A DNA stretch of 22,449 nucleotides from an uncultured Rikenellaceae bacterium (GTDB taxonomy: Bacteria > Bacteroidota > Bacteroidia > Bacteroidales > Rikenellaceae), in contig CAJURV010000033.1 of NCBI GenBank assembly GCA_910588925.1, positions 1 to 22,449 of the forward strand. The letters are read 5' to 3'. Under the pieces are notes generated by a model, which saw nothing but the letters and a program-made list of their open reading frames with translations, was not told where the DNA came from and ran no database searches. This document shows, in pieces, positions 543 through 18,210 of this stretch; positions within the stretch are counted from its first letter, which is position 1; every line of letters begins with the position of its first letter. The position numbers and the translations under genes are program-made.

Positions 543-2135
543 CTATTTCTTAACTATAGGAGCCGCATCGTAATCGAACGACAAGGCATCGATCCACAGT
601 TTCGACCCGGTGGCACCGCAATATCTCTCGCCGTAAACGCTCGACGTGGCTACGAGCACTATATGCGTAGGCTTGATAGTGGTAGTGCGGTACTCGAGGT
701 TTATTACGAACTGCTGGTAGTCGGTAGTAGATGCGTCGGTCTTGAACTCGCCGTACGCTACTATGTCTCTGTCGGCCTCTTTGGGACGTGCCGTGGCTCC
801 GCGCCAGTTCTCCAGATAGATGTATATGTGGCACTTGTCCGTCTCGCCTACATGCTGGGAATCCTCCGGGAATTTGTTCTGATGATATACGTCGATAATA
901 CCCGGCTGATATATGTACCACCCGGAGAGCTTGGCGGGACGACCTGTGAACGGACGCCCGAACTTGGGACTGCTGCCGGGATCCTGGACATTGGTAATGA
1001 AATCTCCGGTAAACAGGTTACCTGCTGCGAGCGGCACCCCTATTGTCACCTTCTTGGTCTCCATATAGGCGGCATACCTGCCCTCCTTTACCTTGTCGGT
1101 GACAGGATAGGTGGCACCGTCGCTCACCATGGCTATACCATCGTTACCGGTAGCCCAATACGGCGCTCCACCTTCGGCGTACGGGAACCAGCAATCGTGA
1201 TTGTTCTTCCTCTTATTAAACCACTCCTCGAAGCTCATATTGGGTATATCCACCACGTCATCGGTGGTGAATGTCTGCTCCTGCCCCCTCTCGTCTCCGA
1301 GGAAAGGACGGCATACGTATTTGGTGCCGGGCTCCAGATCGGTCATCACGGCCGTCATGGTTCCTCCCTCCAACGACACATTGCCTATGTCGGTCTTGGA
1401 CCACACCTCGTCAACATCGCGCCGGTACTCGTAGCCCATCTCCTGATTGGAACCTACGGGCACATCCGCGGTAGCGGTAGCCGTCTTGGTCCACGCCACG
1501 AGGGTCTTGCCGTTGATAGTGAAATTGGCATGCTGGGCCGATACGCGCCACTGCTCCGTACGTCCGAACATGCTCACTTCGAAGACGGTACCGTCTCCCA
1601 AAAGGTCGTATTTACGCTCGTACGGGTCGGGAGTTATCACGGCATTGGCCGGCCCCAGCTCCATCTTGTCTATCCTGACAGACGTAAGAGGCTGCGACTT
1701 GGCCACAGTAACTATCGCCACACGGTTGACGGTATCTATGGAGGCGTTGCCTACCTGATTCTCAACGTTGACGATGTAGTTGACGTCCCATTTGGCGTCG
1801 ATAGTCCACTCGTAATCCTGCCATGTACGCAACGTACAACGGTAGGGACGGGACAGGTTGAGGTTCTCCGGCATTTCGGGCACCATCTCCGTGGAGTCGC
1901 TTATCTCGTAATATATCACCCTCACGTCCGTTATGTCGTGCTCGCCGTCCACAGTGAGGCTTACGGTTCGTTTCACGTTGTCGAACTCGCTTACGCCTAT
2001 CTGTCCCTCCACCTCGAACGCTTTGAAAGAGGGCTGCCTGTTGGGATAGGGTATGTCGTTGACGATACATCCGCCCAACGACAACATCGCCGCAACGATC
2101 GTCACAAGAGTAATGTATCCGTATGCCTGTCTCAT
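543..2135 (-). CDS. Surface lipoprotein with C-terminal PCMD-like domain (paralog 1 of 3)
   Basis: 530-aa ORF. The N-terminus MRQAYGYITLVTIVAAMLSLGGC has a signal peptide and lipobox Cys. The C-terminal ~200 aa (FGRPFTGRP...KPTHIVLVATSSVYG...GSKLWIDALSFD) is clearly homologous to the C-termini of the 700-aa and 723-aa ORFs upstream. An FN3-like strand motif (GTKYVCRPF...QTFTT) precedes it. The ATG overlaps the stop of the upstream gene (ATGA), so it is the last gene of the minus-strand operon. The name PCMD (PF13201) is from memory, not from a search. Confidence 0.8.
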   Translation of the reverse strand: MRQAYGYITLVTIVAAMLSLGGCIVNDIPYPNRQPSFKAFEVEGQIGVSEFDNVKRTVSLTVDGEHDITDVRVIYYEISDSTEMVPEMPENLNLSRPYRCTLRTWQDYEWTIDAKWDVNYIVNVENQVGNASIDTVNRVAIVTVAKSQPLTSVRIDKMELGPANAVITPDPYERKYDLLGDGTVFEVSMFGRTEQWRVSAQHANFTINGKTLVAWTKTATATADVPVGSNQEMGYEYRRDVDEVWSKTDIGNVSLEGGTMTAVMTDLEPGTKYVCRPFLGDERGQEQTFTTDDVVDIPNMSFEEWFNKRKNNHDCWFPYAEGGAPYWATGNDGIAMVSDGATYPVTDKVKEGRYAAYMETKKVTIGVPLAAGNLFTGDFITNVQDPGSSPKFGRPFTGRPAKLSGWYIYQPGIIDVYHQNKFPEDSQHVGETDKCHIYIYLENWRGATARPKEADRDIVAYGEFKTDASTTDYQQFVINLEYRTTTIKPTHIVLVATSSVYGERYCGATGSKLWIDALSFDYDAAPIVKK

Positions 2136-3298
2136 TGCTTTTCCATATTGGTTCTTATCGCCCTCTCGAAATCGTCCTCGGTGGCCTGACGGGCAGATTT
2201 GCGGAACTTGTAGTTGACCGGATTCAAACCTCGCATGGAGTTGATATAGAATGCCATACCGAGATTTATGGAGAAGAGGTCTATCTTGAAGTTGGCCGAA
2301 GTTCGCGAATGTTTACCGGTCTCCACCTGATTGGTTATCTGGTTTATGGTGTTGTATTTCAACCCTAAAACACCCACAGACACCTCCACGCCCACATTAT
2401 CCGTCACAAACGCCACTATACCCGGTGCTAACCCGAGCTGCAGGCTCCGTATCTTCTGGTAGGTACCCTTGACCTCCTCCTTAGAGCTGTTGACGAGCTT
2501 ACCCTGACCGCCGCCGTAGGTAAGACGCGTCTCGTTGAACAGACCTATACGCCTCTGCGTGCCGAGATTGATATAGTTACGTAAGAATAACGAAACATCG
2601 TACTGATGTTGTATATAGGTAAGGTCGTTAATGCCGAAACTAAGGTCGTCGTTGATCTTCAGATTGACGCTCCCAACGTCGGCGGATGTGCGCGAATAGA
2701 CCAAACGCGCGCCTAACGCAGTGTTGTCGGCCACGAAATAACCGATGAACGGACTCACCTTGAACATATAGGCGTCGAGGTTTATATCCTCCACTATCAA
2801 GAACTTATAGTTATCCTCGGTGTAATCCTGAAAAGATATGTTGCCGCCGACGAGCCACTGCCCCTTGGGTACGAACACGATCTGGTCTATCCCTCGGTCG
2901 AACGGATGGCTTCGTCCGCGCATCCAGTTGTTGGCACGCGCCGACTCGCGTTCGGCATAACGCTTGGCACGGTGTTGTTCGTTGCGCTCCTGCAACGGCG
3001 AGGAGATCACGTTACGAATGGTATCTATGCCATACATTCGCTCCTCTATTGCCTTGAGCCTCTGCTCCATCATGCGCGTAAGACTGTCGAGCGACGCCGG
3101 CATCACCGGCACGTAGACCGTGTCTCTGACAGCGACGACACCGGGCTCTTTAGCGCCCTTTACTACGACCGGCACTGAAACCATAGCGGTATCCGAAGCC
3201 ATAATCGATGCCTCCGCCGCCCGACAGATAGCGGGCGACAGAAGCAATATGGCGGCCGTAAGGCCCGTAAGGCCTTTTAGTGATTGCATAAATGACAT
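2132..3298 (-). CDS. Secreted beta-rich protein, putative outer-membrane beta-barrel, unknown function
   Basis: 388 aa. The N-terminal signal peptide MSFMQSLKGLTGLTAAILLLSPAICRAAEA has no canonical lipobox. A charged coiled segment (RLKAIEERMYGIDTIRNV...RAKRYAERESARANN) follows. The C-terminal 250 aa show alternating hydrophobic/polar strand-like segments (YMFKVSPFIGYFVADNTALGARLVYSRT; GIVAFVTDNVGVEVSVGVLGLKY; FKIDLFSINLGMAFYI). It is translationally coupled to both flanking lipoprotein genes (5-nt gap upstream, 4-nt overlap downstream). Confidence 0.55.
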   Translation of the reverse strand: MSFMQSLKGLTGLTAAILLLSPAICRAAEASIMASDTAMVSVPVVVKGAKEPGVVAVRDTVYVPVMPASLDSLTRMMEQRLKAIEERMYGIDTIRNVISSPLQERNEQHRAKRYAERESARANNWMRGRSHPFDRGIDQIVFVPKGQWLVGGNISFQDYTEDNYKFLIVEDINLDAYMFKVSPFIGYFVADNTALGARLVYSRTSADVGSVNLKINDDLSFGINDLTYIQHQYDVSLFLRNYINLGTQRRIGLFNETRLTYGGGQGKLVNSSKEEVKGTYQKIRSLQLGLAPGIVAFVTDNVGVEVSVGVLGLKYNTINQITNQVETGKHSRTSANFKIDLFSINLGMAFYINSMRGLNPVNYKFRKSARQATEDDFERAIRTNMEKQ

Positions 3299-3303
3299 TT
3301 TCG

Positions 3304-5406
3304 TTAATCGAAGAGCAACTCGAACTCGTCGATGTAGAGTGTGCTCCCCTCGCCGCCTATGAAGTCGGCGCCGTACACGCTCGATGTGGCTACGAACACT
3401 ATGTGCGTAGGCTTGATAGTGTTACCCTCGCCGTCTTTCTCAAGGGTGTATTTTATGTCGAAACCACCCTCGGTATATTCAGTGACGTTATCGGCCGTCT
3501 TGAACTCGCCGTAACCCACCACTACAGGGTTCGACGGACGTTCGGAGGTGCCGTCGGGCCACTTCTCGAGACTGATATACACGTGCATTCGGTCAGTCTC
3601 GCCTATGTGCGCATCACCCCTGTTAATGGTAGTAGGCGTATATTTGTAGAAGAAACGCAACCCCGAAGGACGACCGGTATAGGGACGACCGAAATGCGGA
3701 CTATCCTTAGGACTGGATAGGTTGGTCTCAAAATATCCGGTGAAGAGGTTTCCGGCCGCAAAAGTCTTTACGACTACGGCATTGACCCACAGCGACTGCA
3801 TACGTACTCCCCGGCCCTTATATGCTTCCGGCTCGTCTACAGGCGCGGTATTGGAATTGGTCACGATGGTCACTCCGGAGTTACCGGTATCCCAATACTG
3901 ATCCACTCCGTCACCCCACGGATTCCATGTCTTACCGCTCTGGCTCCACGAATCCATATTGAGGTTGGGAATAAGCACGATGTTCTCGGTAGTGAAGCTG
4001 ACCTCGTTGCCCTCTATATCGGCGGAGATCGGACGCACCCTGTATCTGGTATCCGGCTCCAACCCGCGTACGGTAGCGGTAAAGTTCTTACCGTCTATGG
4101 TTATGTCGCTCTCGGGCAAAACGGTCCACGTCTCGTCTGCATCCTTGCGATACTCGAACGTGAGCCCCTCGGGCTGCATACCGGACGTCCACTCGGCCTC
4201 CACGAGAGCGTATTTGGCGAACGCCTCCACCCTCCTGAGGGCAGTGTTGGCATTGGACGAACGTACATTTAGACACACCGTCTGCTCTACTAACTGGCAA
4301 TGGCTGTCGAGCATCATAAGAGTGATATTGTGTTCGCCCGTCTTCATCCCGGCAGTCATACCGCTGAAGTCGATGAAGCCGGAAGAGGTGCCGATACCTC
4401 CCCATCTGAGACCTATGGCATTGAGCGCCGCTACCGTGGCCTCGCCGGCGGTGGTGAGGTTTATGAACTCGGGAAGCCCCTGCGCCACCAGCGACTTATC
4501 GTAGTGAGTGACGTAGAGCAGATCGATACCGGCCTCGGCCTCCACATCTACGCGTGCCGGTACGCTCTCGCCGAACTCAATGAGCGTGAAGCCGTCCATG
4601 TCGAGGTCCGAAGACGAGAACCGCCCCATAGGGCAACGCCCCGGAGTTATCACTATATCGTGGTCGATATCGTCGGTGTTCGGGTCGACGGATATGGACG
4701 AGTGTATGCCGCCGTCGGTTATCTCGCCGCTCTCCGACACCTTGAATGTGAGTATGTAATGCTCTCTGGCCTTTACTCCGGTGATGGTCTTGCGCATCTT
4801 GTAAACAGTCCCCTGCTTGTTGACGAGATTCAATTCCCATGTCAACGAGCCCGGATCCTTGAAATAGCCGGAACGTATCTCCTCCTCCGAGAAAGTAAGC
4901 GAAGCCTTATTGCGGTTATTCTTAACGACAGCCTTATAATAGCTGAACGCCTCGGTGACGCTATGGTCGAAACGCACGCTCACCTTTACGTTGGCTATGC
5001 GGCAAACGAGATTAACCGTCGTAACCTTACCGGTCCTTATCTCGAACGTCTCGCGCCCTACCAGATACGGACTCTCCCAATCGTCGACATCCTTGCCGTT
5101 GGTGGCCACCGCCGTGTAGGTGCCGTTATCCAGCTCTATGACGTCGGGCATATCGTTGCTGTCTTCGAACGACATCACCGCATCGCCCTTCTCATCGAGG
5201 ATCTCCACACGATAAGTGTCCGGATCGGCGGCGTAAGAGACACGTTCCACTACGGATACATCCGAAGTGATACCCTTTATATACAACCGGCCTTTGTTAC
5301 CCACCGTATGCACCGTCGGATCATTGGTACACGAGGCGCACCACACGCACACCAGCGCGGTGATCAGAAGCGCCACACGGCGTCTTATATTGTCGAACGA
5401 TCTCAT
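3304..5406 (-). CDS. Large surface lipoprotein: DUF4493-like N-domain + FN3-like + PCMD-like C-domain (paralog 2)
   Basis: 700 aa. Signal peptide with lipobox (LVCVWCASC). Its N-terminal domain is homologous to the N-termini of the 416-aa and 723-aa ORFs (…NGTYTAVATNGKD…SPYLVGRETFEIRTGKVTTVNLVCRIANVKVSV). An FN3-like motif (TRYRVRPISADIEGNEVSFTT) is followed by a PCMD-like C-terminus (FGRPYTGRP…KPTHIVFVATSSVYG…GSTLYIDEFELLFD). Confidence 0.8.
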   Translation of the reverse strand: MRSFDNIRRRVALLITALVCVWCASCTNDPTVHTVGNKGRLYIKGITSDVSVVERVSYAADPDTYRVEILDEKGDAVMSFEDSNDMPDVIELDNGTYTAVATNGKDVDDWESPYLVGRETFEIRTGKVTTVNLVCRIANVKVSVRFDHSVTEAFSYYKAVVKNNRNKASLTFSEEEIRSGYFKDPGSLTWELNLVNKQGTVYKMRKTITGVKAREHYILTFKVSESGEITDGGIHSSISVDPNTDDIDHDIVITPGRCPMGRFSSSDLDMDGFTLIEFGESVPARVDVEAEAGIDLLYVTHYDKSLVAQGLPEFINLTTAGEATVAALNAIGLRWGGIGTSSGFIDFSGMTAGMKTGEHNITLMMLDSHCQLVEQTVCLNVRSSNANTALRRVEAFAKYALVEAEWTSGMQPEGLTFEYRKDADETWTVLPESDITIDGKNFTATVRGLEPDTRYRVRPISADIEGNEVSFTTENIVLIPNLNMDSWSQSGKTWNPWGDGVDQYWDTGNSGVTIVTNSNTAPVDEPEAYKGRGVRMQSLWVNAVVVKTFAAGNLFTGYFETNLSSPKDSPHFGRPYTGRPSGLRFFYKYTPTTINRGDAHIGETDRMHVYISLEKWPDGTSERPSNPVVVGYGEFKTADNVTEYTEGGFDIKYTLEKDGEGNTIKPTHIVFVATSSVYGADFIGGEGSTLYIDEFELLFD

Positions 5407-5490
5407 TATGATACTCTATTCGTTAATAACCCGAAGCCTTGGCTGACACGTACATGCGCCGCACCGCAGACTCCGAAAAGCCACGCGAGC

Positions 5491-6741
5491 TTAGTCCACC
5501 CTATTGATGGTAAGCGTAGCATTAGCCTCTTCGCCCTTGGCATCCACCAGTCTGATGTGGAATTTATGAACGTTTACGTCGAGCATACTCATGAACGCCC
5601 CAACCGAGAACGATGCGCTGGTAGCTCCAGCGATGGGATCTTCGCCTATAAGACCGAGACCCACGAAACCCTCCTTGAGGTTATCGTCGAGATTAGCTAT
5701 GTCGAAGCTGACGGGAATATTGAAGCTACCGAGTATATCTTCTGTCAGGTACGGCGAATCTATCTCCACGAACAGGTTGGCTATACCCTCCGGAGCGGCG
5801 AAATTAACCACTACCGATGCGCTCGAAGCCTGTGCCGTATTGAACACTAACGGGTTTGATATATTGAAACCTTTACCTTTTATGGTGGGCGCACTACCAT
5901 GCACATCGTCGTCCCACGGATTGTCGATATCGCCGAAATCGCTGCCGTCACCGTCGTCGCCACCCTCCTCGGGCACCGAAACGATATGGTCTTTGTCCGT
6001 CATCGAACCGTCTATCTTGATATTGAAATCGGCCTCGCCCACGCCCATGGCGCTGACATGGAAACGATGCAGCTGGTTGGCCTCGGTCTCGTCTATCATT
6101 ATAGTGTAGGTAAGGAGGCTACCTGTCTTCTTACTGAAACCCTTGGCGGTGACGCTGAGCGGACCCACCGAGAAGAAACCGTACCTCTCCGCACCGTCCG
6201 GCGTGAACACCAATGCGCTCTTTTCAGCACCGGCGTTAGCTTTGGCTATGGTGAGGGTACCGCCGTCGAGCTGCGATGCGAAGCTCTCGTCGAAATCGAC
6301 ATGCACCGCCACGTTATGCAGCTTGCAGAGCAGGTCTACTTCGTTGAGCTGACCGTCGTAAACGCCTATGCGCTCCTCGCCCTTGAAATGAGGACTGTCG
6401 AAACCGGCCAGCTTGACATTGCCGCTCTCGGCCGTTATGGTATAGCTGCCTTTGGCAATCTCCACAACCGGGGGCATATCCGCGTAACGCTCCCATGCGT
6501 AGAGAGCGGCACCGGTGGCGTTATCGGTGAGCGTCACCCTGAAATTATCTATGTCGGCCAATGCGGCGATGGCGTTCTCCTCCTCGGTGGCATAAGTTAC
6601 TATATTGACCCCCTCCGAAGAGAGACCTATCCTAAGGCTAAGACCGTGATCCCCGTCGGGATGCGACATCTCGTCGGTACAAGAGTATATGGATGCTACC
6701 CCTGCCATCACGGCGAATGCGTATGTAAAAATCTTTTTCAT
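5491..6741 (-). CDS. Lipoprotein with DUF4493-like N-domain, an acidic linker and no PCMD domain
   Basis: 416 aa. N-terminus MKKIFTYAFAVMAGVASIYSC. The N-domain motif (GSYTITAESGNVKLAGFDSPHFKGEERIGVYDGQLNEVDLLCKLHNVAV) aligns with the N-domains of the 700-aa and 723-aa paralogs. An acidic low-complexity linker is present (EEGGDDGDGSDFGDIDNPWDDD). Same strand and operon. Confidence 0.75.
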   Translation of the reverse strand: MKKIFTYAFAVMAGVASIYSCTDEMSHPDGDHGLSLRIGLSSEGVNIVTYATEEENAIAALADIDNFRVTLTDNATGAALYAWERYADMPPVVEIAKGSYTITAESGNVKLAGFDSPHFKGEERIGVYDGQLNEVDLLCKLHNVAVHVDFDESFASQLDGGTLTIAKANAGAEKSALVFTPDGAERYGFFSVGPLSVTAKGFSKKTGSLLTYTIMIDETEANQLHRFHVSAMGVGEADFNIKIDGSMTDKDHIVSVPEEGGDDGDGSDFGDIDNPWDDDVHGSAPTIKGKGFNISNPLVFNTAQASSASVVVNFAAPEGIANLFVEIDSPYLTEDILGSFNIPVSFDIANLDDNLKEGFVGLGLIGEDPIAGATSASFSVGAFMSMLDVNVHKFHIRLVDAKGEEANATLTINRVD

Positions 6742-6803
6742 AGTCGTTATATTTTAACGAAATATTTCATGAGGCTCTTGACGGTATCTGTCGAGAAAGC
6801 CCA

Positions 6804-8975
6804 TTAATCCTTTATCTCCGTATATATGAGTTCCACATTATCGACAGTGAGTACATTGCCGATGTATTTGCTGTCTTTGTAGCCCTGAAATGCACCCGCA
6901 GAACCTTTCACTGGATTCACGGACGGGCTGGCAGAAGAGGACGACACGAAAGCTATCTTTATGTGCGTGGTTTTCAAGCGCCTATTATCATAATCGAACT
7001 TAAGTGTCACAGTTTTAAAGTCACCGGCAGGAGTCTTTGCCACATCGGTATCCACCTGCGCACGTCCCAACTCGTTGACCGTACCGTCGGCGGCCCTGTG
7101 CTCCACTATGGCGTATGCGTCGAAGCTCTCGCCGTTTATCTGTGCGAATTTATACGCGAACTTCATTCCCTCGGGACGCGACGGGAACTGACGACCCATG
7201 TTTTCGGTACGACCGGCCAAATCGTAATCGCCTATGAACAACATGCCCGGGGTTATATTTTTCTTTATGCCGTCGGCACCAAATGGGAATGTCGACCCTC
7301 TACCCCAGTTGACTGTGCTTATCTCAGCCGCAAGACCGCTGACACCCTGTGCCGAGCGCGTGCCGGAATATTGGCAATAATAATTCGCCGTACCGGATCT
7401 GTCGCTGGTCGTCAACGCATTGCGCGTATCCCAATATTTGCTTGACGGGTCGTTATAATCGTAAGGGAATACTTCGAATATCTCTATGTTCATACCCGAA
7501 TTTTTGCCGTAGCACATCTGCTCGCTCCACCTCTCGAAGCCGGCATCGGGCACCTGCGCCGCCGTCTCCGTGGTAATGTCGATAGGTTCGCCGAAAGTGT
7601 GACCGTTATAAGCCATTCTCACCCTATAAGAGGTGTTGGGCGCGAAACCCCACGATTTAAGATCGACTCTGTCGCCATCCTCGCTTACAGTACGGCTCTC
7701 GGACAGATCTTCCCATCTGCCGTTTCGGTATATCTGCGTGGAGAACTTGGCAGGATTGGCATCGGCGACGGTGGCCCCGGTCTCTATGTGGGTGGCCCAT
7801 GCGGCGCCCTCGAACGGAAGCCATTCGAACGTAGCCCCGTTGGTTTGAGCCGTGTACACGTCGCTATCTACGCTCTGCCCCAAACCGTCGGTAACCCTCA
7901 GAGAGAAAGCGTGTTCGCCCGCTTCGAGCAAGCCGAGTGTACCGCTCAGATCGACCGTGCCGGAGATATTGTCGGTCATGTCGTCCCATTTCAGAGAGTC
8001 GCGCCGAACTATATTTTTGGTCTGCGTATCTATAGTGAGCAGGTCGAATTCGGCAGGCCATCCGCGTCCGAGCAACGTGGGAGAGTTAACCTTGACTATG
8101 CACTCGCGTATCTGCCCCGGAGCGAATATACCGATGCGGGCATCGTGCGAGAAGCCGTCGGTGTAGGTCACCCTCTTGTCGGCGCCGAAACCTGTGGCCG
8201 TATAGACGGGCGCGGGCTTGGGCGTCATTAACTTGGGTATCTCGAAGACAAGCTCCTTGTCGTCGGTGGAGAGATCTTTGGTTATATCGAGCGAAAAAGA
8301 GCCGTTCTCGCTACGCAAAAAGAGCGTTATATGATCGCCCGGAGCCACATCCTTAATGGTGGGGGGAATATAGACCTTGTCCTCGCCGTCGGCATTGGTG
8401 TAAGAGATGCGGAAACGCACGTCGGCAGGGGGAGCGAATGCCGAACGCTCCTCGTCCGAAGCGAAAGTAAGACGCTGTTCGGAGGTGTAGAGCAAAACGC
8501 TGTAGTCGCTATGTGCAGACTTGAAATCGTCCTCGGCGACCACGGATATGCACACGTTACGGAGCTTTGCCGTGACGGTGACGGGCGTGACCTGTCCGGC
8601 CTTTATCTCCACCGGAGTCTCGCCGTAATAATAGGGTTTGGCAAAGCCTACTTTGGTAGAATCGCCGTAGAAAGCGACCACTTTATGGTTACCGCTACGC
8701 ACCTTGCCGTTACCGATAAGGTCGGAATAACGATTCCATTTCTTAATGAGCGTCTCGCCGGAATATACCAGAAGTCTGAAATTGCCGAGAGTGGTGCCCC
8801 ACGGGTCTATCGCCGCATTAAGATCGCTCACCTCCCCTGAAGAATAAGAGACCAGAGACAATCCTATCTCGCCGTCGAGACCCTCTTTCTCTTGACCGCC
8901 GTTCTCGAACTGACTGCATCCTGCAAAGACCAAGGCCAGAAACGACAGCGATATCAAAGTAAATTTTTTATCCAT
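6804..8975 (-). CDS. Large surface lipoprotein, first gene of operon (paralog 3): DUF4493-like N-domain + FN3-like + divergent PCMD-like C-domain
   Basis: 723 aa. N-terminus MDKKFTLISLSFLALVFAGCSQFENGG has a canonical lipobox followed by a polar/acidic stretch, typical of surface-exposed Bacteroidetes lipoproteins. The N-domain is homologous to those of the 416-aa and 700-aa ORFs. An FN3-like motif (TSYRVRMAYNGHTFGEPIDITT) is present. The C-terminus (RQFPSRPEGMKFAYKF…KTTHIKIAFVSSSSASP…GNVLTVDNVELIY) is a diverged PCMD-like domain. Confidence 0.75.
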   Translation of the reverse strand: MDKKFTLISLSFLALVFAGCSQFENGGQEKEGLDGEIGLSLVSYSSGEVSDLNAAIDPWGTTLGNFRLLVYSGETLIKKWNRYSDLIGNGKVRSGNHKVVAFYGDSTKVGFAKPYYYGETPVEIKAGQVTPVTVTAKLRNVCISVVAEDDFKSAHSDYSVLLYTSEQRLTFASDEERSAFAPPADVRFRISYTNADGEDKVYIPPTIKDVAPGDHITLFLRSENGSFSLDITKDLSTDDKELVFEIPKLMTPKPAPVYTATGFGADKRVTYTDGFSHDARIGIFAPGQIRECIVKVNSPTLLGRGWPAEFDLLTIDTQTKNIVRRDSLKWDDMTDNISGTVDLSGTLGLLEAGEHAFSLRVTDGLGQSVDSDVYTAQTNGATFEWLPFEGAAWATHIETGATVADANPAKFSTQIYRNGRWEDLSESRTVSEDGDRVDLKSWGFAPNTSYRVRMAYNGHTFGEPIDITTETAAQVPDAGFERWSEQMCYGKNSGMNIEIFEVFPYDYNDPSSKYWDTRNALTTSDRSGTANYYCQYSGTRSAQGVSGLAAEISTVNWGRGSTFPFGADGIKKNITPGMLFIGDYDLAGRTENMGRQFPSRPEGMKFAYKFAQINGESFDAYAIVEHRAADGTVNELGRAQVDTDVAKTPAGDFKTVTLKFDYDNRRLKTTHIKIAFVSSSSASPSVNPVKGSAGAFQGYKDSKYIGNVLTVDNVELIYTEIKD

Positions 8976-9314
8976 ATCACAACCCTTTCATACATTCGTG
9001 CGCCGTATCGAGCAAAGCGACGCATAAACTCTTTTTCAAGGAGCGAATGCTCTTTAGGTTATCTCATTCAGGCAGACGTGTACACACTGACTGCCAACTA
9101 CTTCGACACACCGCTATCACAACGGCGACACAGGTCGAAGCGATTTTCCACTAATAATGGAATTTGACAAATGTATAAACTTTTCCTTTCCGCACAAAAT
9201 TTTCAGCCTTTTTTCGACATCCGTACCCCGCCCCGGAAACATAACCGCAGAAGAATACCGACGAAAGAACGACCATTTTATTCGAATGAAAATGCAACTT
9301 GGGAGAAAATTTAT

Positions 9315-10847: not shown

Positions 10848-10863
10848 CATCTTTATACATATA

Positions 10864-10915
10864 AATATCGGAGGCTGCATCCTTAAAGAAGATGCAGCCT
10901 CCGATATTTATATGT
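10864..10915. terminator. Intrinsic terminator after aspA
   Basis: Perfect ~17-bp stem aatATCGGAGGCTGCATC / GATGCAGCCTCCGATatt with a 9-nt loop, followed by ttatatgtat, starting 17 nt after the aspA stop. Approximate coordinates. Confidence 0.75.
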
Positions 10916-11137
10916 ATATGGTTGTACCTCCCGGCAGCCACTTGGTGAAGGTGATTTGTCGAGTGGCAAAGTACCAGAAACAATGGACTTTCAGAAGTAC
11001 ACGATATGCAGTAAAGCAAAAAAAATAAAGATGAACACTTTAGTACATCATGCTACTAATTATATACATAATGCGACTCATGAAAATCTAATTATGTTAT
11101 AATTTCGAGACAAAAGGTTCGGCATTTACGCTACCGA

Positions 11138-11188
11138 CTGGCGAGACGATAAAAACACCTCACAACTTCCCAAAGCTATGCGCATTGA
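11138..11188 (+). repeat. Repeat unit I (copy a): CTGGCGAGACG…(C)TATGCGCATTGA
   Basis: A ~50-nt unit beginning CTGGCGAGACG(A/G)TAA and ending with the palindromic core ATGCGCAT plus a T(T/G)A flank. Copies occur at 89-138, 11138-11188, 11271-11320 and 22091-22140. Confidence 0.85.
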
Positions 11189-11270
11189 CTGAAACGCTCT
11201 CGCTCCGTATCAGGAGCGCAACACAAGACTTGCGCTTCTTTAGAAGTGCAAAGTATAGTACACAATTCCG

Positions 11271-11320
11271 CTGGCGAGACGATAAGATACTACAAAATAC
11301 ACTGAAAGTATGCGCATTAA
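11271..11320 (+). repeat. Repeat unit I (copy b)
   Basis: ctggcgagacgataagatactacaaaatacactgaaagtatgcgcattaa is about 85% identical to the copies at 89-138 and 22091-22140. Confidence 0.85.
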
Positions 11321-11549
11321 CAAATACATCCATGCGGCACGGGGTGCCGCTCCGCAATAACCTCCACGAATTAACAGAACAGAGGTTGGGAAACTCCCCG
11401 GCGAAACAAAAAAGACATCGGAGCTTAACGACATGCGCATTAACCGCAAGTCGCAGGCATGCTAGCCCGTGTACACAACTAAAGACCGCAGGGCGCCGAA
11501 GTTTTTTAGACCTCAAAAATCGTCGATCGCGGTCGTGTGCCTCGGAGCG
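11321..11549 (+). repeat. Repeat unit II (hairpin-rich ~230-nt module), unoccupied version
   Basis: Colinear with 22141-22449 at roughly 80% identity. Shared segments include catgcGGCACgggGTGCCgctccgc (7-bp hairpin), acatgcgcattaaccgcaagtcgcaggcatgc, gaccgcagggcgccgaa and tttttagacctcaaaaatcgtcgatcgcgg. This copy lacks the 67-nt insert present in the 22141-22449 copy. Confidence 0.8.
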
Positions 11550-12035
11550 TACTCGATGTACGTGAGGATGGCTCACGAACGGGATCGGCGATTTTTGTGG
11601 CTAAAAAGCGACGGAAACAGCCCCACGTTAACCGAACCTCGCGCACACAAACCGACAATTCATGCGTTCAGAGATCGCGTACTTCCTAAACTTCACTAAA
11701 ACTTCCTACACGTACGACCCGAACCTATAAAATCCCTAACGCGTCCCCGAAGGGGATGCACCTGCACGAGCAATACAAAAACGTCCCCAACAAAAACAAA
11801 CGGTACTAAAGCGGAAACGATATGAACTTCCAACTACACTAAACACAACTGCGAAAGACAAGGCACAGAAAGCAACCTAACAACGACCGACCAAAACGCC
11901 GTAAGGCGTACACGCCCGAGCGAAGTGAGGGGCATAAATACGAACAAGCAGATTCAAACACGCCGTAAGGCGTACTAATGTTAGCAAAAAGCCCGAGCGA
12001 AGCGAGAGCAATCAAACACAACTTCCGCCGTTAAA

Positions 12036-12320
12036 TCCCGAGGCACGAGGGATGAGCGGGCCGGAGCCTCCCCCAACGGAGGCCCGCTTATACGGTTGGT
12101 TATTTATAGTATTTATCGCCTTTTTATATAAAATCACTCTCTCGAATGTCACACTCGAGCGGTCCCCCGCATGCTCCGGCCCTTGTGACGCCGGGCAAGG
12201 TATCGCTAAAATCCATGTAAACCACATAATAATAGGAGTCGTGTCAATTCCATCCGGCGAAAAGTTCAGCTAATGCACATATCGTCAAGATAGAGAAAAT
12301 TCACCGCCCCGCAAACCGTC
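12036..12320 (+). repeat. Conserved ~300-nt stem-rich element, copy B
   Basis: See copy A. Same block order and orientation. A different AT-rich insertion lies between blocks 2 and 3. The element ends about 35 nt before the pgi terminator hairpin. Confidence 0.8.
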
Positions 12321-12352
12321 TGACGAAGACACGAAAGCCCTCATTCTCACCC

Positions 12353-12385
12353 AATAATAAAAAAGGGGGTACCTGCCCCCTATCC
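12353..12385 (-). terminator. Intrinsic terminator of the gpsA-pgi operon
   Basis: On the minus strand, GGGGGcaggtaCCCCC is followed by TTTTTTATTATT, immediately after the pgi stop codon. Confidence 0.75.
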
Positions 12386-12389
12386 TTAA

Positions 12390-13748
12390 CTACCTCCCGG
12401 CTATCCGTTTCTTGAGCTTCTCGCCCTCCTCCTCATAACCGGGCTTATTTAGAAGTGCGAACATATTCTTCTTATACTCCTCCACACCCGGCTGATCGAA
12501 CGGATTGACCTCGATAGCATAACCGCTGATGCCCACCGCTTTTTCGAACATATATATAAGCATACCTATGGTCTCGGCACTTATAGAATCCATCTCCACG
12601 GTTATGTTAGGCACTCCGCCGTCCACATGCGCGAGCATGGTACCCAACTCCGCCATACGGTTAACTTCGCTAAGACGTTTGCCTGCCAGGAAATTGAGCC
12701 CGTCGAGATTGGCCCTGTCGCTTTTTATGACGACGCGCCCCGCAGGTTTACCAACGCTTATGACCGTCTCGAACATTATACGTTCGCCCTGCTGTATGTA
12801 TTGCCCCATGGAGTGCAGGTCGGTGGTGAATACCGCGCTGTGGGGCATGATACCCTTGCCCTCCTTACCCTCGCTCTCACCGTAAAGTTGCTTCCACCAC
12901 TCGGCCATATACTGCAACTTGGGCTCGAACGCCACCAACAGCTCCACCTTCTTGCCCAACTTGGTATAGAGGGCATAACGGGCCGCCGCGTATTGCATTG
13001 CAGGATTATCCTCGAAAGGCACGTCTACAGCCGTAGCCTTCTCCATAGCCGCCGCACCTTTGACCAAACGGGCTATATCTATGCCCGCCACAGCGAGGGG
13101 AAGAAGCCCTACCGGAGTCAGAACGGAGAAACGTCCGCCCACATTGTCGGGAATAACGTAACTTTTATACCCCTCCTTGTCGCAAAGCGTACGCAACGCC
13201 CCGCGCGAACTGTCGGTCACAGCCATTATGCGCGAAGCGGCCTCCTTGCGTCCGTACCTCTTCTCAAGCTCCTCGCGCAACAGACGGAAAGCTATGGCCG
13301 GCTCGGTAGTAGTCCCCGACTTGGATATGACTATCAACGAAAACGACCGCTCCTTAATGAATGCGAGCAACTCGGCCATATAATCTTCGCTGATGTTATG
13401 TCCTGCGAAAAGCACCAACGGCTGACCCTCACTACTATCGAAGGCCGCAAACGTTGGGGTCAAAGCCTCCATTACGGCCTTGGCGCCGAGATAAGAGCCG
13501 CCTATGCCTATCACCACTACCACCTCCGAACAAGCACGCAAGGTATCGGCACACTCCATAATATCGGCGATCTGCTTCTTGCCTATCGACGAGGGAAGTG
13601 TCACCCAGCCGAGAAAATCGCTTCCCCTGCCGTCGCCTTTATGAACGGTACGATTGCATCGCTCCATAAGAGGAGCCAAAGCCGCTATGTCTTTTTTGGA
13701 CACGAATTGCGTGATTCTGTCTAACGATATTCTGACCTTTGTTATCAT
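12390..13748 (-). CDS. pgi: Glucose-6-phosphate isomerase
   Basis: 452 aa. It has the N-terminal architecture typical of Bacteroidetes Pgi (…[15 protein letters not shown]…) with a SIS domain and a PGI family fold. Length and motifs are typical. Confidence 0.85.
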
Positions 13749-14821: not shown

Positions 14822-15142
14822 TACAATAATCTTTTTTGCACACAATGCTCTCGAACACAGGGATTATTAGCCCATGCTATCGGAAACACCGGATACATAC
14901 AACACGGACCGCGGGAAAGATCTTGCGAAAATATCGCAGGCCCCTCTACGCTAAACTATTCTCCCTACAAAACAGAAAGCCCCAAGGTCCGAATTGGTTT
15001 TAAAGATAGGTATTTTATTCCAAGCATGCAAATCGCCAGCTCCGGACGTTGCCTTTCCGACACTTTCGTATGAATAACCGCCTTATTTTCACAGACATCT
15101 CAACCACCGTAGACAAAGCCAGAGCACGATCGCTTTTGCGCT

Positions 15143-15307
15143 CGGCTTATTCGTATCTTTGGCTGTGCCTTAGATACTCCGCCTCGACAAACCCAAACAA
15201 GTTTGCTTTTGTATTCGGCTTATTCGTATCTTTGACTTCGTCTTAGATACTGCGCCTCAACAAACCCAAACAAGTTTGTTTTTGTATTCGGCTTATTCGT
15301 ATCTTTG
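15143..15307 (+). repeat. 2.3 tandem copies of a 73-bp repeat, each carrying TTTG…TATCTTTG promoter-like motifs
   Basis: The unit cggcttattcgTATCTTTG-(n)-cttagatact-cgcctc-acaaacccaaacaaGTTTGyttttgtatt occurs at 15143-15215, 15216-15288 and 15289-15307 (partial). Each unit carries a TAnnTTTG -7 motif about 21 nt downstream of a TTTG, which is the Bacteroidetes sigma-A architecture. It lies ~130 nt upstream of the hydrolase ATG. The first 13 nt (tgcgctcggctta) are shared with the small hairpin element family. Confidence 0.7.
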
Positions 15308-15348
15308 CACCTGCATGCAACGGAAAAACGTTCGCTTCGATGCAGATG

Positions 15349-15414
15349 TTTTCTCGCCCCGGCAATCGAAACTTCGTTTCATTGCGCTCGGCTCATCGAA
15401 AACGTCAGCTTTAT
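15349..15414 (-). repeat. Small hairpin element copy (reverse orientation) in the hydrolase 5' region
   Basis: gttttctcgccccggcaatcgaaacttcgtttcattgcgctcggctcatcgaaaacg is the reverse complement of the 22329-22395 copy at about 90% identity. The internal hairpin GAAAC-UUCG-GUUUC has a UUCG tetraloop. Confidence 0.75.
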
Positions 15415-15437
15415 TTCGCAGTCGCATCAAAACAGAT

Positions 15438-16757
15438 ATGAACCGTATTTTAGCCATTCTTTTACCGCTCGTGGCGATATGTTCCGCCCGGGCCGCCGAC
15501 CCCGCCGATCCGGCCGCTCTGCGCAAAGCGACCGAACGTAAAATAGAGAACTACCTTATGCAAGGCGTCGCAGGACGGTATTTCCCCGGAGGGCAGTTGG
15601 TGATAGGGAACAAAAGCGGCGTCATATACTCTACGAGCGTAGGTTCGTTCGACTACAGCGGAGGGCGCAAAGTAACCGACACCGACCTGTACGACCTTGC
15701 CTCGGTAACCAAAGTGATGTCCACGACCTTGGCCGTCATGACCCTTTACGGAGAGGGGCGCATAAAGCTCTCCGACAGGTTGGGGAGCCTGGTTCCGCGA
15801 TATAGCGGCAGCGCCGTAGCCGACATAACCGTACGCGACATGCTACGCCACACCTCCGGCATGAAACCGGTGATATACGTATGCGAACTGACATGCAGGC
15901 CTATAGCCGACTCCGTAAAGCTATTGAGCGCCAAACGCGACTCTCTGCACACCGTGGCCGTAGACGCCTCCACATACGTGGTAGACACATTCGTTTACGA
16001 CAACCGATACGTAAGCGCCACCCCCGACAGTACCACCCTGTTCGACCTCTCGCCGAGGTTATGGGTGCGTCGGTCCCTGCTCTCGGCCATCGACTCTGCC
16101 GTAGTAGCCTCCTATCAACCTGAACGACGCGGACGTTACCGATACAGCTGCCTCAACTTCTATCTGCTGCAACAAGCCATAGAGGAGCTTAGCGGAGAGA
16201 CGCTCGACAAATTCGCAGGTTCGATATATCGACGCATGGGGCTCACCCGCATAGGCTACAAACCGTTGGAGTGGAGCGACATAGGCCAGATAGCCCCCAC
16301 CGAATACGACCTGCTCATGCGACACGACACCGTACGCGGCTATGTACACGACGAGATGAGCGCCTCGCTCGGCGGGGTATGCGGCAATGCGGGACTATTC
16401 GCCGACGGACTCGACGTAGCCTCGCTATGTCAGATGTTCCTGTCCGGCGGCAGATGGAACGGCATGCAGATAATAAAACCGGAGGTGTTGCGTCTGTTCA
16501 CCTCGGAACAGATGTCTCCCTCGAGCCGTGTCACCCGCGGACTCGGTTTCGACAAGCTGAAAACGGAGCCTTACAGCACAGCCTCTTACGGCCACACGGG
16601 CTTCACTGGCACCTATTTCTGGTGCGACCCGTCCATAGATCTTTATGCGGTATTGCTAACCAACGGCGTCTACCCGTCGCGAATAGACAAAACCATAGGC
16701 GGCAGTTATCGCAAACGGATATGGGAACTGGCCAAAGAGTTGAGGAAAATACAATAA
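15438..16757 (+). CDS. Serine hydrolase (class C beta-lactamase/esterase family), exported
   Basis: The start is reassigned to the ATG at 15438 (MNRILAILLPLVAICSARA signal peptide). The 5' extension in the track runs through the tandem repeats and is spurious. The protein carries the S-x-x-K active-site motif (ASVTK) and C-terminal HTGFTGT, both typical of the beta-lactamase/transpeptidase fold. Confidence 0.8.
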   Translation: MNRILAILLPLVAICSARAADPADPAALRKATERKIENYLMQGVAGRYFPGGQLVIGNKSGVIYSTSVGSFDYSGGRKVTDTDLYDLASVTKVMSTTLAVMTLYGEGRIKLSDRLGSLVPRYSGSAVADITVRDMLRHTSGMKPVIYVCELTCRPIADSVKLLSAKRDSLHTVAVDASTYVVDTFVYDNRYVSATPDSTTLFDLSPRLWVRRSLLSAIDSAVVASYQPERRGRYRYSCLNFYLLQQAIEELSGETLDKFAGSIYRRMGLTRIGYKPLEWSDIGQIAPTEYDLLMRHDTVRGYVHDEMSASLGGVCGNAGLFADGLDVASLCQMFLSGGRWNGMQIIKPEVLRLFTSEQMSPSSRVTRGLGFDKLKTEPYSTASYGHTGFTGTYFWCDPSIDLYAVLLTNGVYPSRIDKTIGGSYRKRIWELAKELRKIQ

Positions 16758-18118: not shown

Positions 18119-18200
18119 GCGGATGTGGTGTAATTGGTAGCCACGCCAGACTTAGGATCTGGTGGCGCAAGCCGTGGGGGTTCGAGTCCCTTCATCCGCA
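18119..18200 (+). tRNA. tRNA-Leu (anticodon TAG)
   Basis: Perfect 7-bp acceptor stem GCGGATG/CATCCGC with discriminator A. Anticodon stem-loop CCAGA-CTTAGGA-TCTGG. A long (13-nt) variable arm marks it as type II. The T-loop is TTCGAGT. CCA is not encoded. Confidence 0.85.
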
Positions 18201-18210
18201 CAAAACGAAC

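Follow-up and report, generated by a model that had tools for sequence, protein, structure and literature searches.

The stretch of DNA analysed here (the window) comprises 22,449 nucleotides of contig CAJURV010000033.1 from an uncultured Rikenellaceae bacterium (assembly GCA_910588925.1); the nearest genomes to it are Rikenellaceae/Alistipes metagenome-assembled genomes. Five consecutive open reading frames (ORFs) on its minus strand, between positions 8975 and 543, encode four lipoproteins built from the Pfam families DUF4493 and PCMD and a 388-aa protein that is modelled as a small outer-membrane barrel (Table 1). We examined this operon as a candidate cell-surface system.

The operon and its modular lipoproteins

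An earlier note on this DNA, made from the sequence alone, had described five same-strand genes with two tight junctions, and the gene coordinates and both junctions were borne out. The stop codon of the 388-aa gene overlaps the start of the 530-aa gene in an ATGA at 2132-2135 ('aagcaATGAgac'), and the 700- and 388-aa genes are separated by 5 nt (3299-3303, 'gatTAAcgaaaATGtca', TAA cgaaa ATG), or by 14 nt if the barrel protein starts at Met4, as does its homologue P0001. The two remaining intergenic gaps measure 84 nt and 62 nt. The candidate promoter lies about 190 nt upstream of the gene for the 723-aa protein and is the sole match to TAnnTTTG on the minus strand between 543 and 9407. The consensus for Bacteroides promoters reportedly goes back to work by Bayley and colleagues in 2000. 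A terminator-like hairpin begins 20 nt past the stop codon of the 530-aa gene. Because there is a single promoter-like site, a single strong terminator and coupled junctions, the five genes look like one transcription unit. A phase-variable (invertible) promoter was also sought upstream; just short imperfect inverted repeats were found there, with no sign of inversion.

Table 1. Genes of the operon and its putative transcription signals
Feature	Position	Strand	Evidence
Gene 1, 723-aa lipoprotein	6804-8975	minus	ORF + Pfam
Gene 2, 416-aa lipoprotein	5491-6741	minus	ORF + Pfam
Gene 3, 700-aa lipoprotein	3304-5406	minus	ORF + Pfam
Gene 4, 388-aa outer-membrane barrel (predicted)	2132-3298	minus	AlphaFold2 + Foldseek
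Gene 5, 530-aa lipoprotein	543-2135	minus	ORF + Pfam
Candidate Bacteroides-type promoter, TTTG (9198-9195)-19 nt-TAcaTTTG (9175-9168)	9168-9198	minus	pattern match only
Intrinsic-terminator-like hairpin, 14-bp stem then TTTTTGTT T-run	493-523	minus	sequence

The names PCMD and DUF4493 had been put forward in the earlier note, and Pfam confirmed both with matches far beyond the cut-offs. DUF4493 (PF14900; gathering cut-off 27) was matched in the 700-aa (E 9e-46, 157 bits), 723-aa (E 1.5e-35, 123.5 bits) and 416-aa (E 3.6e-32, 112.5 bits) proteins. It is the N-terminal domain that these three proteins were said to share, but at ~225 aa, the whole of DUF4493, it is larger than the ~120 aa then proposed. 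PCMD (PF13201; cut-off 28) was matched in the 530-aa (E 5.7e-46, 157.6 bits), 700-aa (E 5e-40, 138.1 bits) and 723-aa (E 1.8e-10, 41.4 bits) proteins, and is the C-terminal domain held to be common to them. Pfam found no PCMD in the 416-aa protein, no DUF4493 in the 530-aa protein, and no match in the leftover modules (the N-region of the 530-aa protein, the middle domains and the C-domain of the 416-aa protein).

Behind its lipobox, the 723-aa protein consists of DUF4493, a ~130-aa middle domain, an FN3-like module and a degenerate PCMD; the 700-aa protein has the same order and ends in a well-conserved PCMD. In the 530-aa protein a unique ~190-aa N-region precedes the FN3-like module and a well-conserved PCMD. 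The 416-aa protein carries, as noted before, an acidic disordered linker (~258-285) between DUF4493 and the middle domain and lacks the C-domain; yet its C-terminal ~130 aa are not unique to it, being homologous to the first half of the DUF4493-PCMD interval in 700-/723-type proteins (hhalign probability 94-99%). The FN3-like element of the 530-, 700- and 723-aa proteins was likewise upheld by hhalign as a genuine shared module of ~95 aa, but its identity as FN3 was supported only below threshold (Pur_ac_phosph_N, E 1.5e-4 and 5e-3; FN3 chains, E 0.06-0.2). BLASTP aligned the 416-aa protein with the 700-aa (29% over 246 aa) and 723-aa (22% over 406 aa) proteins, the 700-aa with the 723-aa protein (24% over 563 aa), and the 530-aa with the 700-aa protein (38% over 336 aa). 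The 530- and 700-aa proteins contain the motifs YRVRP..TT, FGRP.TGRP, KPTHI..VATSS and GS.L.ID, which occur in degenerate form in the 723-aa protein. The 700-aa protein matched the PDB entries 4het, 4jrl and 3hbz.

A lipobox Cys was identified in all four lipoproteins, the calls being read from the sequence rather than from a predictor: Cys20 (723 aa, VFAGC), Cys21 (416 aa, IYSC), Cys26 (700 aa, CASC) and Cys23 (530 aa, LGGC). It is kept in nearly all homologues, where acidic residues usually follow and mostly form clear signals of the C-QQED, C-QEED or C-SSSE type. In the Bacteroidetes surface-export signal, two or more acidic residues come after a polar one (PMC5080379). The TDEM that follows Cys in the 416-aa protein fits this signal. 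In the 530-aa protein the sequence C-IVNDIPYP stands immediately at the lipid-anchor Cys, and C-x-I-x-NDIPYP was found in essentially all 80 unique PCMD-only proteins encoded after the barrel (strict pattern in 57 of those 80; nearly all others are one-residue variants).

Conserved gene order, barrel, pilin-like module and PCMD head

The distribution of the barrel gene was surveyed in one genome per GTDB species, and the layout was mapped on the best 80 loci, each from a different species. The gene is present in at least 593 GTDB species. All of the best 80 loci belong to Bacteroidales bar two records labelled only 'bacterium', and they include Alistipes/Rikenellaceae, Bacteroides, Phocaeicola, Parabacteroides, Mediterranea, Odoribacter, Muribaculaceae and Barnesiella. 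A gene with DUF4493 and PCMD lies upstream of the barrel gene in 71/74 evaluable loci and a PCMD-only gene lies downstream in 72/73; most exceptions are ORF-calling artefacts or come from fragmented assembly. The gap between the barrel and PCMD genes has a median of 9 nt, and the two overlap in 20 loci. It had been asked whether the 388-aa gene keeps its place within PCMD clusters of other genomes or encodes a generic porin; because the gene is syntenic, it does not behave as a generic porin without a fixed neighbourhood.

Three layouts were distinguished (D, DUF4493; P, PCMD; approximate lengths in aa). Layout A, that of the window, reads D+P ~720, D ~416, D+P ~700, barrel, P ~520; layout B reads D ~260, D ~435, D+P ~600, barrel, P ~550, D+P ~720, D ~230; and layout C resembles A but has two barrel genes in tandem. 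Precomputed Pfam annotations for B. helcogenes and B. cellulosilyticus are in line with the cluster layout. A divergent AraC-type gene was detected upstream in 15/34, 3/8 and 2/14 loci of the three layouts, counts that are a rough undercount, and none was found in the window. Its minority presence in the layouts and absence from the window led us to reject such a regulator as a core component. Just upstream of the cluster, the opposite strand often carries a stand-alone BT2081-like PCMD gene (~370-395 aa; loci L020, L042, L050, L055, L062, L064, L074 and L088). In a Bacteroidaceae metagenome-assembled genome (L083, 14954-18067) a second barrel paralogue (15723-16550) is flanked by short DUF4493 genes only, with no PCMD; because of this paralogue, the link between barrel and DUF4493 may be more basic than that with PCMD. 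In the complete genome of Bacteroides finegoldii JCM 13345 (L059, 3890-13177) the cluster is split up into numerous short ORFs, the result of either pseudogenisation or sequencing errors.

The 388-aa protein had been described as a beta-rich secreted non-lipoprotein. Its beta-rich nature and signal peptide were confirmed, but the model indicates an outer-membrane beta-barrel. A Sec signal peptide (..AICRA|AEA) is followed by a disordered stretch, a long helix (residues 68-125), the barrel (148-352) and a helical C-terminal tail of ~37 aa, modelled as two short helices. In the AlphaFold2 model (57-sequence alignment, mean pLDDT 74) eight long strands were read from the DSSP string rather than counted from coordinates. 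Foldseek matched the model with OmpA, OprG, OmpW, NspA and TtoA, and more weakly with Pla and FapF; the best TM-score was to OmpW (0.64), with OprG among the top matches. The Pfam family OMP_b-brl (PF13505) scored 20.4 bits, under its cut-off of 28.7, and was matched at all in 16/57 homologues; no match to Pfam OmpW or to a DUF3575-type barrel was obtained. By its model, the protein is a small OmpA/OmpX-like outer-membrane barrel of an unclassified family, 8-stranded by our own reading, and because it reads as 8-stranded it would be too narrow to translocate folded proteins. A translocon role was considered by analogy with FapF, which has an N-terminal coiled coil and a barrel, and was rejected as the main idea, given the 8-strand reading and the size of most of the listed homologues (230-295 aa, with no long N-terminal helix).

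Homologues of the barrel protein numbered 321, and an exhaustive profile search gave 283 clusters (50% identity) at E<=1e-30 and 748 at E<=1e-10. Their conserved portion is the barrel only (~50% identity across genera) and the pre-barrel motif FDRGI..VFVPKGQW, and they end in a typical ..GMTFY(L/F). Conservation at the putative extracellular hairpin tips is 0.58-0.64, against 0.64-0.86 in the membrane strands, a near-strand level that loops constrained by a partner would show. Public gene calls start the protein at Met33 (356 aa; the affected start of the gene lies at 3202-3298); because this start deletes the signal peptide, the 388-aa ORF is the better call. The clade of the window differs from most of the family at both ends. 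A helical C-terminus of ~37 aa (2132-2245) follows the usual ..FY(L/F) strand, at which nearly all other members end, and a ~100-aa segment with a 58-residue helix (2924-3100) stands at the N-terminus. Across the family, N-terminal extensions range from none to ~340 aa.

A pilin-like fold had been proposed as a check on the lipoproteins. The AlphaFold2 model of the 416-aa protein (25-sequence alignment) had a mean pLDDT of 71.5, with ~80 within domains. Two independent structure comparison methods matched its DUF4493 module with type V pilin structures across both lobes. The pilin matches aligned 156-189 residues at 3-5 Å; most non-pilin matches covered 73-130 residues, roughly one sandwich. 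The same pilin set was ranked by Foldseek at E 2e-7 to 1e-4 with probability 1.00. At the level of Pfam, none of the FimA-clan families (P_gingi_FimA, Mfa2, Mfa_like_1 and others) was found in the window proteins, DUF4493 alone being matched.

The second check concerned an Arg/Lys cleavage site behind the lipobox. It has been shown that the precursors of FimA and Mfa1 are lipoproteins, that their cleavage at Arg46 and Arg49, respectively, frees a groove for strand exchange, and that the anchors FimB and Mfa2 have no cleavage site and stay lipidated (PMC8512630). The DUF4493 N-terminus has a G-x-L-x-L strand ~10-15 residues past the lipidated Cys, followed by a loop of ~18 residues. In this loop [TS][RK][AS] occurs in 210/298 unique DUF4493 proteins, where 3.4% was expected from the rate of the motif elsewhere in the domain, with counts that are not phylogenetically independent. 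The motif recurs in every paralogue class, and the Arg/Lys lies at a median of 30 residues after Cys. This site in the wider family suggests protease-dependent maturation and strand complementation, for which the loop Arg/Lys would be the cleavage point. Within the window the outcome was mixed. The 700-aa protein keeps Arg55 (VVERVSY), 29 residues past Cys26, and E-R-[VT] is conserved within its clade. In the 416-aa protein T-R-A is replaced by T-Y-A; the Tyr is conserved in close orthologues, and S-R-A persists in distant ones. The loop of the 723-aa protein ('LVSYSSGEVSDLNAAIDPWGTTL') contains neither Arg nor Lys.

No stalk-type gene, that is one encoding DUF4493 only, was found in the window, where every DUF4493 module continues into further domains; short DUF4493-only genes occur solely in other cluster types. 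In layout B the first gene (~260 aa, DUF4493 only; locus L001, 5976-6758) has a strongly conserved C-terminus, ..DI(E/I)VPS(E/D)W(I/V/L)-COOH, and the product of the last gene (~230 aa; L001, 14701-15387) stops before the final two DUF4493 strands. Judged from their sequences, these two products are a possible donor/acceptor pair for strand complementation.

For PCMD, the reference is the structure of BT2081, in which an Ig-like domain is joined to a galactose-binding-like jelly-roll with a structural Ca site (Glu122/Asp351) and a deep (~19 Å), conserved pocket of ~1160 Å3 lined by aromatic, aliphatic and polar residues (PMC2954218). Its authors suggested carbohydrate binding or possibly exo-hydrolysis, with no activity shown; GH16 catalytic modules are among its structural neighbours, and BT2081 lacks the GH16 catalytic Glu pair (PMC2954218). 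We aligned the PCMDs of the window to 3HBZ and surveyed 255 cluster PCMDs for pocket residues. The 530- and 700-aa proteins retain the Ca site and the aromatics Trp145, Phe202, Phe206, Tyr261 and Phe340 (BT2081 numbering). The 723-aa protein retains the Asp/Glu of the Ca site, but its pocket is degenerate, as it is in other outer (723-aa type) PCMDs. At the position of the proposed nucleophile, Asp259, the 530- and 700-aa proteins have His, and the family as a whole has His, Ser or Ala. In place of Asp338 the three window proteins have Glu, Ala and Gly; its equivalent is Asp in 69/80 and 68/76 barrel-flanking PCMDs. Neither a GH Pfam family nor a conserved catalytic carboxylate pair was found in the window PCMD proteins. 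The earlier note had conceded that its reading would suffer if the C-domain belonged to a known catalytic family, and it belongs to none. A PCMD profile of 71 sequences retrieved just 4JRL, 3HBZ, 4HET and 3S30 from the PDB at E<=1 (E 1e-37 to 1e-39). BT1761 is the levan-binding surface glycan-binding protein (SGBP). It is called a 'paralog' in PMC2954218, and PCMD was considered as a characterised glycan binder on that ground; this was dropped, as the profile matched these four structural-genomics entries only.

Proposed function and alternatives

The interpretation we favour, with a probability of about 0.55, is that the operon specifies an array of heads that bind a ligand, probably a glycan, and that sit on pilin-like stalks in association with the barrel; it would be a type-V-pilus-derived variant and not an enzyme pathway. 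The five genes would build an outer-membrane surface complex in which the two-lobed DUF4493 module of the 723-, 416- and 700-aa proteins forms a lipid-tethered, membrane-proximal stalk. From this stalk the middle domain and the FN3-like spacer of the 723- and 700-aa proteins would lead to a distal PCMD jelly-roll head, with the 416-aa protein ending at the middle domain; the 530-aa protein would present an FN3-like spacer and PCMD head on its different N-region. The barrel may be the membrane dock for the two lipoproteins that always flank it (700 and 530 aa), the carriers of the well-conserved PCMD pockets. The 530-aa lipoprotein would dock there, chiefly because its invariant NDIPYP segment lies at the membrane surface and its gene is translationally coupled to the barrel gene. 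The heads would bind a ligand, most probably a glycan, and the system would act as a cell-surface adhesin or lectin array, like type V tip adhesins or the SusE/F-type surface glycan-binding proteins. Because Arg is kept only in the 700-aa protein and a stalk-type subunit is absent, lipid-anchored monomers or a short hetero-oligomer are expected and no long filament.

Several observations weigh against this interpretation. The match between DUF4493 and pilins rests on a medium-confidence model with moderate Z and TM (TM 0.35-0.49 on target). A 64-sequence DUF4493 profile searched against PDB sequences found no pilin, only noise (titin, Lap, FimD usher; E >= 1e-3), and scans of the 64 members with Pfam gave weak Mfa_like_1 in 2/64 and DUF3869 in 1/64. 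Since profile and Pfam scans found no link, the relation to pilins is one of fold and motifs alone. Barrels of 10 and 12 strands (Pla, FapF, autotransporters) were also retrieved by Foldseek with similar E-values. A clear two-acidic export signal is present just in the 416-aa protein, the other three having one Asp or Glu, and it is by inference that the proteins are placed at the surface, joined in a complex and assigned a ligand. Among PDB entries, the PCMD profile retrieved no glycan-binding protein characterised by experiment. Because the BT2081 pocket, deep and partly hydrophobic, is not a glycan cleft, the ligand could be something other than a carbohydrate.

The earlier note had likened the operon to those for type V pili or adhesins and not to an enzyme pathway. 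Fold, motif and synteny support that reading of a surface system, and a polymerised structure at this locus is doubtful. Canonical polymerisation is unsupported in the window because no DUF4493-only gene is present and further domains follow every pilin-like module. A true polymerising type V-like pilus, in which DUF4493 would be cleaved at Arg/Lys and exchange strands to form a filament, PCMD would serve as tip adhesin and the barrel as basal anchor, is for us an unlikely explanation. The pilin-like fold of the DUF4493 model, the family-wide [TS][RK][AS] ~30 residues after Cys and the donor/acceptor-like first and last genes of Bacteroides-type clusters all speak for it, as do the several paralogous lipoprotein genes per operon, an arrangement shared with fim and mfa (PMC8512630). 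Beside the missing stalk-like gene and the lack of Arg/Lys in the 416- and 723-aa proteins, however, the window offers no free C-terminal donor strand, because all three pilin-like modules continue into further domains. Nor is an Arg-specific protease known from these organisms, and canonical type V pili are not known to possess a barrel protein of their own.

Less likely again is a lipoprotein-capped uptake system, in which PCMD heads would pass a small, partly hydrophobic molecule to an OmpW/OprG-type channel by the logic of BtuG-BtuB or SusD-SusC. It would account for the resemblance of the barrel to OmpW and OprG, the translational coupling of the barrel gene with the downstream PCMD lipoprotein gene, the invariant motif at the lipid anchor of that lipoprotein, and a ~19 Å deep pocket with many aliphatic and aromatic residues, as in BT2081 (PMC2954218). 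The barrel, however, has no Pfam OmpW match and a single weak match to the generic OMP_b-brl; neither the window nor the annotated loci show an inner-membrane transporter, a TonB-dependent receptor or a catabolic gene linked to the cluster; and the idea leaves unexplained why each cluster has three to five pilin-like stalk modules.

Least probable, and in our view improbable, is that PCMD is a glycoside hydrolase and the operon a non-canonical surface system for polysaccharide degradation: depositors' labels on PDB 3HBZ, 4HET, 4JRL and 3S30, the GH16 neighbours of BT2081, the Asp kept at position 338 in most barrel-flanking PCMDs and the occurrence of stand-alone PCMD genes in polysaccharide utilisation loci (PMC2954218) point that way, but no activity has ever been shown, the GH16 Glu pair is missing from BT2081, Asp259 is replaced throughout and Asp338 in the window proteins, and the window holds no SusC/D, other carbohydrate-active enzyme, sugar transporter or sugar-sensing regulator.

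Surroundings, known systems and significance

The genes next to the operon are housekeeping genes: a class II lyase, pgi, glycerol-3-phosphate dehydrogenase, a beta-lactamase-family protein, an ABC-3 permease, an SPFH protein and tRNA-Leu (anticodon TAG; 18119-18201, plus strand). As had been claimed, a Pfam scan of the ORFs across the window found no SusC/SusD pair, glycoside hydrolase or regulator, and a SusC/SusD pair was also absent from the annotated homologous loci. The C-terminal sorting domain of the type IX secretion system (TIGR04183 and related) gave no NCBIfam match at E<=0.1, and the domain scans gave no usher or chaperone match. Between the lyase gene and pgi lies an interval of ~1.5 kb (10850-12390) with no convincing ORF, no Rfam match and an unusually high AT skew. 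It contains a perfect 28-bp inverted repeat directly after the lyase stop codon (10854-10881 / 10891-10918), a 38-nt inverted repeat of 79% at 11504-11607 and several short direct repeats, such as ATGCGCATTRAC in three copies at ~125-nt spacing. A tandem repeat at 15142-15307 (73 nt x 2.3 copies, 92% identity) carries in each copy TATCTTTG, a promoter -7-like motif, and overlaps the annotated TTG start of the beta-lactamase-family ORF (15276-16757).

The system resembles type V pili (FimA-E and Mfa1-5 of P. gingivalis, and the Bacteroides FimA-superfamily 'cell adhesion' proteins whose structures JCSG solved) in its lipoprotein precursors, in the predicted two-lobed beta-sandwich module, in the Arg/Lys that DUF4493 has at the family level in the loop after the first strand, ~30 residues past Cys, in its operons of several paralogous subunits, with adhesion placed on accessory or tip subunits, and in its restriction to Bacteroidales among the loci examined. 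Unlike type V pilins, DUF4493 does not fall into the FimA, Mfa2 or Mfa_like families by sequence; at ~225 aa it has less length than the pilin chains that it matched (about 225-500 aa), and it is joined in one polypeptide to middle, FN3-like and PCMD domains. The cluster always contains a gene for a dedicated small outer-membrane barrel, and the variant in the window has no stalk-type subunit and no cleavage Arg in 2/3 modules.

With the stand-alone PCMD proteins of the BT2081 type (3HBZ, 4HET, 4JRL, 3S30) the operon shares the pairing of an Ig/FN3-like domain with a jelly-roll, the Ca site, the pocket aromatics and N-terminal lipidation. Those proteins, however, are stand-alone, ~360 aa long and encoded in SusC-containing polysaccharide utilisation loci (PMC2954218), whereas here PCMD ends multi-domain proteins of 530-723 aa in an operon lacking SusC/D, with His in place of Asp259. 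A lipid anchor, tandem Ig-like spacers and a distal binding domain are also found in SusE/SusF-like SGBP-B proteins, and the SGBP-B of a mixed-linkage glucan locus (6e57) was among the Foldseek matches (E 9e-5); in contrast to these, the operon has no SusC/D partner and its head is PCMD, whose profile matched no characterised SGBP in the PDB. The barrel is closest to OmpA/OmpX/OmpW/NspA-type barrels (PF13505), which are its top Foldseek matches and with which it shares a ~200-residue barrel, long strands and the C-terminal ..GMTFY(L/F). It differs from them by its sub-cut-off Pfam score, the pre-barrel FDRGI..VFVPKGQW and its fixed place between two PCMD lipoprotein genes; in the clade of the window it further differs by the ~100-aa disordered and helical N-terminal segment and the ~37-aa C-terminal tail.

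Both Pfam families are already known, as entries of 'unknown function', and so are type V pili. For DUF4493 no full-text literature match was obtained and no PDB chain was matched by sequence. For PCMD/BT2081 one structural-genomics paper from 2010 was found (PMC2954218), and no functional study. No paper describing the DUF4493/PCMD/barrel cluster was found in the literature that could be searched. The cluster with its strict conservation, the likeness of DUF4493 to pilins together with its maturation-like motif, and the dedicated barrel thus appear to be undescribed there.

More tentatively, and as a proposal that we hold to be possible rather than probable, the DUF4493 clusters might represent an unrecognised, barrel-associated branch of type V systems in hundreds of gut Bacteroidales species. 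In such a branch, the subunits would be matured between R and A at a pilin-like site, would be assembled through strand complementation on a dedicated 8-stranded barrel and would present PCMD lectin heads, and the window would contain a reduced variant locked in its lipid-anchored state. If this were true, type-V-like systems would gain in the barrel their first known dedicated outer-membrane component.

In gut Bacteroidales, adhesion, the formation of biofilms and the capture of nutrients depend on surface lipoproteins and type V pili. The cluster bears on how the outer membrane holds and organises such pilins and surface lipoproteins, and it joins two Pfam families of 'unknown function' and an unclassified barrel family in one testable machine. 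If the favoured interpretation of a barrel-associated array is confirmed, PCMD and DUF4493 would gain a cellular role, and the cluster would provide a compact 5- to 7-gene model for the docking of pilin-like lipoproteins at the Bacteroidales surface.

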